A DNA stretch of 64,000 nt, from assembly GCA_965214035.1 (NCBI GenBank), contig OZ243932.1, positions 1,007,992-1,071,991 on the forward strand, in the 5' to 3' direction. Positions within the stretch are counted from its first letter, which is position 1, and every line of letters starts with the position of its first letter. This DNA is from Gammaproteobacteria bacterium (GTDB taxonomy: Bacteria; Pseudomonadota; Gammaproteobacteria; JAJDYQ01). The notes below the pieces were generated by a model, which did not search any database, was not told the origin of the DNA, and saw only the letters and a list, made by a program, of their open reading frames with translations. Both the position numbers and the translations under genes were made by a program. Positions 36,901 to 38,554 of the stretch are shown piece by piece.

Positions 36901-38554
36901 GATCGCCGGACTTGAGCAGGGTCACGCCGGTATTGGCCTCGTCTTCATTGAGCACCAGCGTGTAGTGCGCCGTCTCACCGGCAGTATAGGGAATGATTGC
37001 CTGCTGACCGGCCAGCAGCGGTTGGTCCAGAGTCACGGTAATGTCCAGAAAATTATCCGCACCGGATTCCGTGATGGTTGTGAACTGGAATACATCCTCA
37101 CCCCCATCAGAGATTCTAAAGGGACGCGAGTGTGTCATGGTGAAGGCAGTTCGCTCGTTGTCCCAGACGCTGACTGTGGCGGTGGTGTCTGCCGAGGCAC
37201 CCGGTCCGTAGTCATCACCGTCGGTCACGGTCACGCTGACCGCACCGTCCGGTTCATCGATAGTGTCATTTTGGGTCGGCACCGTGTAGCGCACCGTGGT
37301 CTGACCGACCGGCAGCATAACCGTGTGCGCACCGGCGGCACTGTCCGATAGAAAACCGGTGGCATCACCGGTCTCCTCCACCGTCAGGCGAATGGTCAAA
37401 TCCCTGTCGGGTGCCGGATCGGCCGTGATGATAAAATCGGCCGGACTGCCCTCGGTCACGCCTAAGCCGCTGTCCGCGGCAATGGTGACCGCCGGCACTT
37501 GATCGTTAATGACCGCCACTACCACATCCTGCAGAGCCAAATGACTGGCCTGATAGGCGGCACTGTCGCCGGTGGTAATCGCATGACTGACCGTGAGCAG
37601 ACGCACATCACCGGTATTTTCAATGCCGTCACTGATGGCCGCTACGGTGACCCTTTGCGACTGGCGCCAGTTGCCATTCGTGAAGGTCAGTACCTGACTG
37701 GCTCCAGCCGTGCCACCGGCTATATTGACTGTCGCCAGTCCGGGCATGTCCGACTCCAGGGTGATGACCACATCACCGGCCGGTTGTGTGTCGAGCACTG
37801 CGGTGTAGGTGGCCGTGCCGCCTTCCCGAACTACCACGGTCGATGGCGAGAAGGTTACACCGGCCTCATCATCCACCACCGTGGCCAAGACCCCATCGAG
37901 AGCCAGTCCGGAGGTGTAGGCGTTACCGTCGCCTGTTGTAATCCTATGTCCGATAGTGGCGGTGTTACGGTTCATGCCCACTACAATAACGGTCTGCGGC
38001 TGGTCCCAGTTGGTCGAGGTAAAGGTCAGGGTGGCCGTACCGCCCGCCACATTGACGGTCAGTACGCCGACATTATCCGGGGCTGCGGTGATGGTGACAT
38101 CGCCATCCGGTCGAGTGTTGAGTACCACGGTGTAGCTGCCGGTGCCGCCGTCCTCGGCCACGACCAGGCTGGATGAGGACAGTGTCACGCCGGCCGCCAT
38201 CTGGGCGGCGACCTGGGTCGGCAGGCCGATGAGCAGAATCGGCAAAAACAGGCTGTGGCACAGCCGGCGGACGGTTGGGCTGATGGACTCAGGGCAGACG
38301 GATTCGGGCAGAGAGGACAGGGTTCCGATGGTATATCCTGCCACCCGGGACAGCATCGCCATGAGGCGCTTCATAGCCGATTTCCCCACCATTTTTGAGG
38401 GGGGGGGGGGGGGGGGGGGGGGGGGGGGGGGGGCAGCATGGCGACAATATGGCGACAGCCGGGCCTGGCCTTTCGTCATCGCCATGGTTGCTGTATCTGT
38501 CGTCAGCACCGGACCGGTGTTGCTGTCCGGCAATGTTTGTACTGTGTTATTCAT
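30962..38554 (-). CDS. Giant autotransporter passenger (2530 aa), repetitive Ig-like/Calx-beta-like adhesin with extended signal peptide
   Basis: An AGGAGGAAA SD precedes ATG at 38554. The predicted extended signal region runs from M61, 'MKRLMAMLSRVAGYTIGTLSSLPESVCPESISPTVRRLCHSLFLPILLIGLPTQVAAQ', with residues 1-60 forming an upstream leader that includes the Pro11 stretch. More than 20 repeats of about 100 aa share 'LTFTS(T)NWNQPQTVTVT...DD'. The beta-barrel ORF follows immediately. Confidence 0.8.
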   Translation of the reverse strand: MNNTVQTLPDSNTGPVLTTDTATMAMTKGQARLSPYCRHAAPPPPPPPPPPPSKMVGKSAMKRLMAMLSRVAGYTIGTLSSLPESVCPESISPTVRRLCHSLFLPILLIGLPTQVAAQMAAGVTLSSSSLVVAEDGGTGSYTVVLNTRPDGDVTITAAPDNVGVLTVNVAGGTATLTFTSTNWDQPQTVIVVGMNRNTATIGHRITTGDGNAYTSGLALDGVLATVVDDEAGVTFSPSTVVVREGGTATYTAVLDTQPAGDVVITLESDMPGLATVNIAGGTAGASQVLTFTNGNWRQSQRVTVAAISDGIENTGDVRLLTVSHAITTGDSAAYQASHLALQDVVVAVINDQVPAVTIAADSGLGVTEGSPADFIITADPAPDRDLTIRLTVEETGDATGFLSDSAAGAHTVMLPVGQTTVRYTVPTQNDTIDEPDGAVSVTVTDGDDYGPGASADTTATVSVWDNERTAFTMTHSRPFRISDGGEDVFQFTTITESGADNFLDITVTLDQPLLAGQQAIIPYTAGETAHYTLVLNEDEANTGVTLLKSGDHPVGRGRLATIDEEEGGLLRFAGAGARQAVLRLTAIDNADRVERRFAFLFSSRQQAHGFEDDAAFGLGSGGLEAVNDRINRLSILDDDATTTGSPTITFALENFGVLEDDGPSQPVALLSRPLPDLVEVPVQISDGTAIAGQDYESTENRLLIFAPGVTTRQVTIRLIEDNIVEPTETLTIAFGELPDSLAAGARPMATISIIDFSDTAGLRLEPAPFTVPEGSQADYTVRLTSQPTAAVTVTISGHDGTDLMLDKDSLTFTPEAWNTPQAVTVSAMADSGNYEGTLTHTITSMDDSTYAALEAVVFDVTVTDTDAAGVLISESTATVAENSGMDDYTVHLNTRPGGIVTLDITAAAGVTVAPPQLLFTSTNWQQVQTVTITGVDDDIDNTGDQRTAVIRHTISATEDSTGYPTTLTIDSVTVTVTDDDTAGITFNPTALTLAESGGTAAYTVVLDSPPADNVIIEARAAMPGVTLHRSGDSPAGTAVLEFIAGNWNQPQTVIITGVDDDTTDTRTVLIRHFVTNGAAGYATGQRVDDVIEVTVLDVPPAISIAGGSPATEGDMIEYRLTANKPPVTDLTIDLTVMDVPGSDFIAAEGDQTVTFPAGTTATATYTIPIIDDEVDEVSGEVTVTINDGTGYTAGTIDTATIMVLDDDATIVTLAENPAGDLDEGASKQITLTLNRGLVNGEDLVVPLTFGGDATRGTDYTLMEVATNGVSYANLTGSDDPTVTFIGPSSGTTAMTATLTLRATADSTSDSGESITIVPGTLIDIFLDGGGTVTGSLAFNITEQPALSLNPSTLTTDEGDTATYTVSLVTQPNAPVAITVSGQADTDLTLSDDTLNFTTQNWNQPQTVTVTAGSDDDAQSDDPIALLHTATGGDYAGVTGEVTVTITEDDTAGITVQPTTLAVDEDGTNNYTVVLTSAPAGEVIIMVDSGTVATVDNDMLTFTQSNWNQAQTVTVTGMDDAVHNAGDARSGTITHAISQGDSGDYRTDREIDSVQLTVADNDDPTLSIQVVGDHTSIEEGDARMIQITVSPDTGETFTLVDVRLLLDISDGYELTLDQTDTSLDPTLQFEVSVTDNDQDGADGMLTIDVSSVSGYAAGSPAMVQLTVNDNDQAGIRIIGATGSVTRVAENGGTDSYIVVLTSQPAASVTVTATPGTGITMTDTTLTFTSTDWNQPQTLIVTGQDNNDDDAGDRRVAISHTLSGDTQYSGLSIDDLMVMVDDDDPTEVSLTRTGSTGAIDEGQAVTFTIELGRALIAGEIIEVPLSIAGTDVEPADWSLARQSGTGVVLSNENTMTPLLRFENAGAQTAELTLTAIGDNTMEGSGSETFIIALGPDGTVTNGFDHSSLNTNVGGGADPDSPDHFSVQVNDAIVMPMITITGGTTVTEGMGSASFTLTATPPPTDALTLMLNVSGGSGFITTSGAQTVALNGGSRTVAYLIATQGDAVDEPNGTVTVTVGTGTGYDVGDPSVASVGVHDDDATTVTLVGDPGNVAEGGSKQLTLTLGRALTAGEQLTVPLTFGGTAVFGTDYTLTGTAANGVDYSDLAGGSVTFSAGGEVATLTLMAQTDAMVETGGETVRIALGTLDSSSGTNLGGGASGMGNVDFTIQEQPALVLSTTRLTLIEGGSASYRVSLAAAPSADVMVTLTGTNAELEADDTTLTFTSQNWGNPQTVTLTAVTDSNTVMDQVTLTHSADAGYDSVTADLEVIITDSSPQLQFSSTEIELDEGGTTSYTVRLSARPIAEVTVMLSGHADTSLTVNPLALTFSTMNWNETQVITLIAGTDSNSVNEAAVTLVHAADAGFGEVSRDVTVTIADTDTPDSTGNLVLSESSLDMEENGAASYTVVLDTRPSGDVTVRVSSGDATRLRVTGGDRLLFTPTNWNQAQTVTVMARDDADSDANRVILTHTADAGYDPATLPVEIADDDESADMTAMQAAQQMWLPRFGLTAIEHMLGGLHHRFTASRPAGSVG
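38399..38433. repeat. Homopolymeric G35 tract (C35 on the coding strand) in the 5' leader of the autotransporter gene
   Basis: 35 consecutive G at 38399-38433 encode Pro11 in the M1-initiated frame. The tract lies 7 nt upstream of ATG 38392 and 25 nt upstream of ATG 38374, where the predicted extended signal peptide begins. Confidence 0.9.

Follow-up and report, generated by a model that had tools for sequence, protein, structure and literature searches.

In Moraxella catarrhalis, the autotransporter gene uspA1 is preceded by a G(n) tract of 6-13 G that lies 29 bp upstream of the open reading frame (ORF) and whose length alters the level of messenger RNA (PMC7302503). The fim2, fim3 and fimX promoters of Bordetella carry C-stretches of up to C19-22 with lengths that vary among paralogues and strains, and the Bordetella autotransporter gene bapC has tracts of G11 and C14 close to its 5' end (PMC1891110). 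Here we describe a homopolymeric tract, C35 on the coding strand and G35 on the + strand, in the 5' leader of a giant autotransporter-type adhesin gene located on the - strand of a 64,000-nt stretch of DNA (contig OZ243932.1, positions 1,007,992 to 1,071,991; hereafter the window) from an uncultured gammaproteobacterium whose genome is represented by one 2,513,604-bp contig (NCBI, ENA). A fundamental question is what such a tract does at this position. We hypothesize that it is a slippage-prone contingency tract that acts as a phase switch or a dimmer in the 5' leader of genes for giant Calx-beta autotransporters, which form a multicopy family, and we place the probability of this reading at about one half.

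The tract occupies positions 38399-38433, where reading of the + strand, which is the template strand of the adhesin gene, returns the 35 G residues described in the original prediction, an annotation of the window made by a model from its letters alone. It is the sole long run of its kind, as the other G/C runs in the 64 kb measure at most 6 nt and the longest A/T run measures 8 nt. From base composition (GC 52.1%), ~5e-16 runs of G/C of at least 35 nt are expected, and the statement that the length exceeds chance is thereby borne out; the genome-wide figure of ~50% GC on which that statement was based does not describe the adhesin gene, where local GC is ~60%. Slippage is associated with tracts of ~7-9 nt or more, and the length of C35 in the window, like that of a C26 tract in a related gene copy, falls in this range.

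This related copy resides on the ENA contig ctg118107_7x_l (L019), a contig of long-read style which belongs to a different assembly from that of the window. Its C26 tract (L019:629-654) stands before an autotransporter gene, a paralogue or orthologue of the one in the window, with a barrel that shares at least 90% identity with that of a paralogue in the window genome. The sequences that follow the two tracts, C35-TCAAAAATGGTGGGGAAATCGGCTATGAAGCGCCTCATGGCGATGCTG in the window and C26-TCAAATGGTGGGGAAATCGGCCATGAGGCGCTTCATGGCCATGCTG in L019, are nearly identical, such that 44 of the first 50 aligned columns match and the first 200 nt past the tract, comprising a 22-24-nt leader and the signal peptide, show 88-92% nucleotide identity. 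The barrels are 86% identical, and the passengers are less well conserved than the leader and signal region (~50-77%). Upstream of the tract, no similarity between the two loci was detectable by alignment. Taken together, the alignment identifies the tract as the exact 5' edge of homology between the gene copies. Neither this boundary nor the membership of the gene in a multicopy, partly decayed family had been remarked in the original prediction. An intrinsic terminator (GCGGGGCCGG...CCGGCCCCGC then T6; 29542-29584, - strand) is common to both loci, and the aligned homology ends ~25 nt past it. The resulting conserved module, common to at least two giant adhesin genes, consists of poly-C, a 22-24-nt leader, an extended signal peptide, passenger, barrel and terminator. 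The idea that this unit is a retro-copy, resembling a messenger RNA with a non-templated tail, was dropped because the homology continues ~25 nt past the terminator T-run and nothing else supports it. Since an independent assembly has a C-tract at the same position, the tract is a genuine homopolymer and an artefact is very unlikely, which answers the concern over misassembly that accompanied the original prediction. That prediction had also proposed to look for a variable-length tract in relatives. A tract of different length is indeed present at the homologous position, as a contingency tract predicts, and it belongs to a different locus from that of the window.

The leader that separates the tract from the adhesin gene (38372-38398, - strand) is conserved in the L019 alignment and reads TCAAAA-ATG(38392)-GTG-GGG-AAA-TCG-GCT-ATG(38374) on the - strand. 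It contains a Shine-Dalgarno-like GGGGAA (38387-38382) which, as had been noted, stands 7 nt ahead of ATG 38374. This ATG is the likely adhesin start, and it places the tract 24 nt from the beginning of the signal peptide, within the 5' leader of the gene; the motif occurs once in the window. Translation from ATG 38374 yields an extended signal-peptide region of 58 codons (38201-38374, - strand), MKRLMAML...LFLPILLIGLPTQVAAQ. Its organization and putative cleavage site were read by eye, without a predictor, as a positive N-region and a hydrophobic LFLPILLIGLP followed by TQVAAQ. The region had been described as a classic extended autotransporter signal peptide. Its length agrees with that description, but no match to the extended signal peptide region (ESPR; Pfam PF13018) was found in the 58 residues even at E-values of up to 10. 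The label was therefore rejected in favor of a different sequence type. A PESxC/PESxS repeat of 5 aa (15 nt) at 38270-38310 (- strand) comprises two units in the window and in L019 and four units (PESACPESASPESACPESAS) in the intact paralogue P0235, an in-frame length polymorphism of the signal region.

On the other side of the tract lies an ORF that enters it (38434-38567, - strand). Reading and translation of the sequence place its start at ATG 38554, 41 codons before the tract and 7 nt after a strong Shine-Dalgarno sequence, AGGAGG (38567-38562). From this start the tract is translated as Ala followed by the Pro11 of the original prediction, and translation continues in frame into a large ORF of 2530 codons; the public annotation of the same genome contains the same 2530-aa product (P0173). 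The L019 locus likewise has an upstream ATG with a strong Shine-Dalgarno sequence (GGGAGGG-7-ATG), 81 codons before its tract. In both loci the longest open frame ahead of the tract is the adhesin-phase frame, with 60 codons in the window and 139 codons in L019. The upstream ORFs are specific to their loci and do not look like coding sequence, as their GC content at third codon positions (GC3) is 0.54-0.60 in the window and L019 versus 0.71-0.75 for the adhesin. For these reasons, namely the absence of similarity between loci and the GC3 values, the possibility that the pre-tract ORF is the true conserved N-terminus of the adhesin was rejected.

A consensus scan for sigma-70-like promoters found none inside or next to the tract or between the tract and the ATG, and the sole strong promoter-like site upstream is at 39258-39231. 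The tract is therefore probably transcribed as part of the leader, and a promoter-spacing mechanism of the Bordetella fim type was set aside for lack of an adjoining promoter. Structure prediction leaves the tract largely unpaired in this leader and places two hairpins in both loci. In the first, GGUGGGG is paired with the final C residues of the tract, so that the Shine-Dalgarno sequence would be masked; in the second, the AUG is paired with a downstream CAU. One pair changes from U-G to C-G between the loci. An Rfam scan of the leader returned no credible family. Both loci also share an ATGA stop/start overlap at the adhesin start, cTATGAag in the window and cCATGAgg in L019.

How could this arrangement translate the length of the tract into adhesin expression? 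Slipped-strand mispairing in vivo would change the number of C residues, and with it the frame in which the upstream ORF, equipped with a strong Shine-Dalgarno sequence, stands to the adhesin start 24 nt past the tract. The weak Shine-Dalgarno GGGGAA and the AUG are predicted to be masked by tract C residues and the downstream CAU, respectively, so that adhesin translation would depend on ribosomes arriving from the upstream ORF. With 34 or 37 C (3n+1), the upstream ORF terminates at the TGA that overlaps ATG 38374, and termination-reinitiation at the resulting AUGA would produce a normal pre-protein. With 35 C (3n+2), the length as assembled, the upstream ORF is fused to the adhesin; the product would be a fusion protein with the signal peptide buried ~100 residues from its N-terminus. 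With 36 C (3n), the upstream ORF terminates at a TGA 75 nt inside the adhesin ORF. The frame geometry thus agrees with the earlier argument that length sets the leader frame, and an effect of the tract on adhesin expression may be inferred from it.

The gene behind this leader departs in one respect from what had been supposed. Its passenger ORF (30962-38371, - strand; ~2470 codons) is composed of Calx-beta, fn3_6 and LapA-like repeats according to Pfam scan and translation, and follows the signal peptide as expected of a classical (type Va) autotransporter. The autotransporter beta-domain (PF03797; 29619-30929, - strand), identified by Pfam scan and matching the public gene call P0121 at 100%, is out of frame with the passenger. 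In place of the single ~3000-aa autotransporter that had been proposed, the 2530-aa ORF stops at 30962 and the barrel continues in another frame; the union of PF03797 and passenger in one polypeptide that defines type Va is found in the paralogue P0235 and is missing from the window copy. Three-frame reading and paralogue comparison locate two +1 insertions (~30981-30965 and ~30896-30877) in the passenger/barrel junction zone (30877-30985, - strand). A tblastn comparison of P0160 with the window passes through frames -1, -2 and -3 in succession at both insertion sites. The junction is read in a single frame ('...HHRFTAS-DQPGLSGNLNGLPRGQSFNAARLLSSRGxP-DASVxGIEQLG...') in P0122, P0124 and P0160 of the same genome and in P0161 of another assembly.

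The junction looks like either a very recent pseudogene or two local sequence errors. The two insertions, 'tcgAgacc' and 'cccGgatg', fall within ~90 nt, neither is in a repeat, and the preceding 7.4-kb passenger ORF is fully open. Because the other long ORFs are intact, and because two ORFs that seem to overlap at 44.3-46.6 kb do so in the relative L003 too, we take the frameshifts to be real mutations and not general assembly noise. As assembled, the sequence of the window copy indicates a disabled gene from which a displayable protein is excluded. Any switch would consequently be moot in the window, since the passenger is uncoupled from the barrel.

The family as a whole, judged from its sequences, is multicopy, partly intact and partly decaying. 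The window genome encodes two intact full-length autotransporters, P0235 (3025 aa) and P0245 (3773 aa), and for this reason the family is considered functional now or recently. It also encodes P0160, a C-terminal product of 623 aa that spans the passenger-barrel junction without interruption, and several barrel fragments together with an integrase-barrel chimera (P0123, P0129, P0139, P0159). Many paralogues with 86-96% similarity are available. The adhesin copy in L019 is broken into at least seven ORF pieces, and its adjacent genes are intact (L019:689-10037, 10139-20037). Protein searches with the adhesin N-terminus returned the L019 gene call as the sole high-identity match; a metagenome scan with the same query gave only distant domain matches (28-41% identity), and a scan of viral contigs for the motif of tract plus leader gave no match. 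Look-ups of identical proteins for FtsX, the ABC ATPase, a 132-aa ORF product of the window and the paralogues P0121-P0123 were likewise negative.

The closest genomes, found through the flanking FtsX-like permease in a scan of genome contigs, are metagenome-assembled genomes (MAGs) of uncultured Gammaproteobacteria. One close relative (L001, 94% nucleotide identity) is represented by a short-read contig that ends at window position 39176, before the tract. In two relatives at ~75% nucleotide identity the giant gene is absent from the syntenic site. L003 (~75%) retains only a degraded 189-aa barrel remnant between the FtsX-like gene and the next conserved genes (L003:15510-16079), and the adhesin is therefore considered ancestral at this locus and lost in the L003 lineage. 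Other adhesin copies in the L003 genome are split, and erosion of the giant Calx-beta family seems to be general in the clade. The 5' ends of the related adhesins L013-L018 contain no tract; these ends are degraded or cut by contig ends. Giant Calx-beta autotransporter genes of the L003 genome occupy several ORFs each in L014:1-6465 and L015:6400-11662, with passenger-like coding remnants upstream in other frames.

A possible trace of an earlier adhesin lies upstream of the tract. An ORF of 132 codons (38770-39168, - strand) is preceded by AGGAGG and by the promoter-like site at 39258-39231, which is near consensus (TTGGCA-16-TATAAT). It shares 63% identity over residues 74-103 with the signal peptide of the giant adhesin P0284 and 43% over residues 63-99 with the signal region of the paralogue P0245, and it stops 28 residues after the part that resembles a signal peptide. 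These similarities make the ORF the probable remnant of an earlier adhesin N-terminus at this position. Both its promoter and its Shine-Dalgarno sequence are conserved in L001, whose contig ends exactly at that Shine-Dalgarno sequence (39176).

The proposal of phase variation in the original prediction thus stands as regards a real tract, its place in a 5' leader, the frame geometry and the existence of a C26 copy, and it is moot in the window itself, where the gene is already dead. Several further observations weigh against a slippage-driven contingency tract. The tract fronts an inactivated gene copy in the window, and the comparison of 26 with 35 residues is one between two different loci. 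Both assembled lengths give the fusion frame, a state that is not evidently ON; the probability of this coincidence is 1/9, and a long-read consensus may misjudge the length of such a tract by one or two bases. Between the loci the upstream ORFs show no sequence relationship, and their GC3 values are unlike those of coding sequence. The z-scores of the hairpins are weak (-1.6 to -1.9), and the whole-leader fold is no more stable than shuffled sequence (z = +1.3). At 26-35 nt slippage would be near-continuous and a heritable ON/OFF state may not exist, and CCC-C runs are prone to ribosomal frame loss (proline tRNA/elongation factor P (EF-P)). These last two considerations favor an output that is graded or noisy over a binary switch. 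Finally, the tract persists before the L019 copy of at least seven pieces and before the frameshifted window copy, and its persistence is no proof of selection because both tract-bearing copies are broken.

Other explanations must be weighed against the same evidence. One hypothesis is that the tract has no regulatory role and is a neutral by-product, a runaway expansion in the non-essential leader of a family that decays within a reduced (2.5-Mb) genome. The copies would have inherited the tract or acquired it from one another through gene conversion. The two inactivating +1 insertions, the fragmentation of the L019 copy beside intact neighbors, the many barrel fragments and the integrase-barrel chimera, and the barrel remnant at the syntenic site in L003 would all be expected of such decay. 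Neutral expansion accounts less readily for a tract at the identical position in two copies whose passengers have diverged to ~50-77% identity, for the fact that the leader and signal region beside it are the best-conserved parts (88-92%), for its being the sole long homopolymer in 64 kb, or for the intact 3025- and 3773-aa paralogues in the same genome, and we regard it as unlikely, though a serious contender. An error of sequencing or assembly, such as poly-G from two-color Illumina chemistry or a chimeric join, is extremely improbable. No platform gives the exact length of a 35-nt homopolymer reliably, but a C26 tract with the same flanking motif occupies the homologous position in an independent contig, the single 2,513,604-bp contig implies long reads, both flanks are continuous with a coherent gene start, and the other long ORFs of the window, including those of 1666 and 828 aa, are intact.

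Two further hypotheses retain a function for the tract and differ in its nature. The transcribed poly-C could serve as a leader attenuator in which C-only, G-free and unstructured RNA forms a Rho loading (rut) site that is shielded by translation of the upstream ORF. Since poly-proline would be translated in every frame and would need EF-P, adhesin transcription would reflect the state of translation or of EF-P, and the length of the tract would adjust how strong the attenuation is without toggling a frame. Poly(C) is the strongest, classical cofactor of Rho. The prediction that the tract is largely unpaired, the upstream ORFs with strong Shine-Dalgarno sequences that enter it in both loci, and the long leader that follows from the lack of a promoter near the tract are all consistent with attenuation, as is the report that stalling at poly-proline in the absence of EF-P breaks the coupling of translation to transcription and so leads to termination by Rho (PMC5021804). 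The argument is inferential throughout, the two loci do not share their upstream ORFs, neither an Rfam family nor a conserved structure was detected in the leader, and a C-rich patch of 12-15 nt would be enough for Rho, which leaves a perfect homopolymer of 26-35 nt unexplained; attenuation is clearly unlikely on this balance. Alternatively, the G run on the template strand, which from its sequence can form a G-quadruplex (G4), could be a recombination junction or initiator, the G4 or a fragile site starting gene conversion or rearrangement. Exchange of cassettes from tract to terminator between loci would explain why homology starts at the tract. The sharp boundary there and the 3' boundary just past the common terminator point in this direction, as do the remnant of an older adhesin N-terminus with its own promoter 340 nt upstream, which suggests replacement, the many 86-96% similar paralogues available as partners, the break of the related short-read MAG contig (L001) at window position 39176, and the precedent of pilE in Neisseria gonorrhoeae, where a G4 is needed for gene conversion (PMC3547852). 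However, the comparison covers two loci only, the partial copies are conserved barrel fragments and not variable passenger cassettes, and no sign of recent exchange was found, as the two copies are 77-90% identical and not near-identical. The boundary could simply reflect faster divergence of unconstrained upstream DNA, and a recombinogenic role appears quite improbable. A stronger form, in which the tract is the 5' junction or initiator of cassette exchange and not primarily an expression switch, and in which promoter-less adhesin cassettes would move into expression sites that supply promoter, Shine-Dalgarno sequence and start codon, is very doubtful. If it were true, the giant autotransporters of an uncultured and probably host-associated gammaproteobacterium would be diversified by a system like that of pilE.

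Beyond the adhesin, a GC-rich (59%) patch of the window contains an ORF of 1666 aa (5697-10697, - strand) whose translation includes a DEAH helicase motif (VADEAHRTAG) and an NPPF adenine-methyltransferase motif. Read from its translation only, the product looks like a fused helicase-methyltransferase restriction or defence enzyme of the Type ISP/IIG kind. The neighborhood of the L019 adhesin copy also has the appearance of defence or mobile DNA, with a HipA/helix-turn-helix toxin-antitoxin pair, Fic, a 1111-aa helicase and type I restriction-modification genes.

If the tract is a slippage-prone contingency element, as we propose, homopolymer contingency switching would extend to tracts ~1.5-3 times longer than any characterized bacterial example and would reach an uncultured small-genome lineage with multicopy autotransporters of ~3000 aa. 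The combination of a strongly translated upstream ORF, poly-C that encodes poly-proline in every frame and a masked AUGA start may be a distinct way of gating a surface-protein gene, on which slippage, EF-P-dependent translation and possibly Rho could all act. The sharp homology boundary raises the question of whether such tracts shape the rearrangement of adhesin genes. At a practical level, a very long G/C run in a MAG built from long reads can be a genuine feature, and filtering such runs out as artefacts is unwarranted.

How, then, does this locus compare with the known systems? Its nearest precedent is uspA1, in which, as in the window, a G/C homopolymer lies in the 5' leader close to the ORF of an autotransporter adhesin, at 29 bp in uspA1 and 24 nt here. 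The uspA1 tract consists of 6-13 G on the coding strand and acts at the level of messenger RNA, whereas here 26-35 C are found on the coding strand and an upstream ORF runs through them; moreover, UspA1 is a trimeric autotransporter and the present family is of the classical type (PF03797) with Calx-beta repeats. With Bordetella the family shares a long poly-C tract that is common to paralogous surface-protein genes and differs in length between copies, and the tracts here are ~1.5 times longer. The fim C-stretch is located between an activator site and the -10 box, and fim homology extends upstream of it, in contrast to the present tract, which has no flanking promoter and at which homology stops. 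Coding tracts in Neisseria and Haemophilus (pilC and opa-type leader repeats), the model favored by the original prediction, are similar in that the repeat separates a start codon from the part that encodes the signal peptide or mature protein, and repeat length thereby determines whether the protein beyond it is read in frame. The start and leader ahead of the repeat are part of a conserved gene in those cases, whereas here the pre-tract ORFs are unrelated between copies and not coding-like, and the tract is followed by a further start codon that has a Shine-Dalgarno-like sequence of its own. The pilE locus of N. gonorrhoeae resembles this one in having a G4-capable G-rich sequence upstream of a surface-protein gene with many partial paralogues (PMC3547852). 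It differs in its defined 16-nt G4 motif, its associated small RNA promoter, for which a consensus scan near the present tract found no counterpart, and its silent variable donor cassettes, in place of which the partial paralogues here are barrel fragments. In its length and its position in the 5' leader of a surface-protein gene, the sequence of the tract has the structure expected of a contingency locus. It is unusual in being extremely long, in being conserved across paralogues and in lying at the boundary of homology, and is otherwise of the known contingency-tract type.

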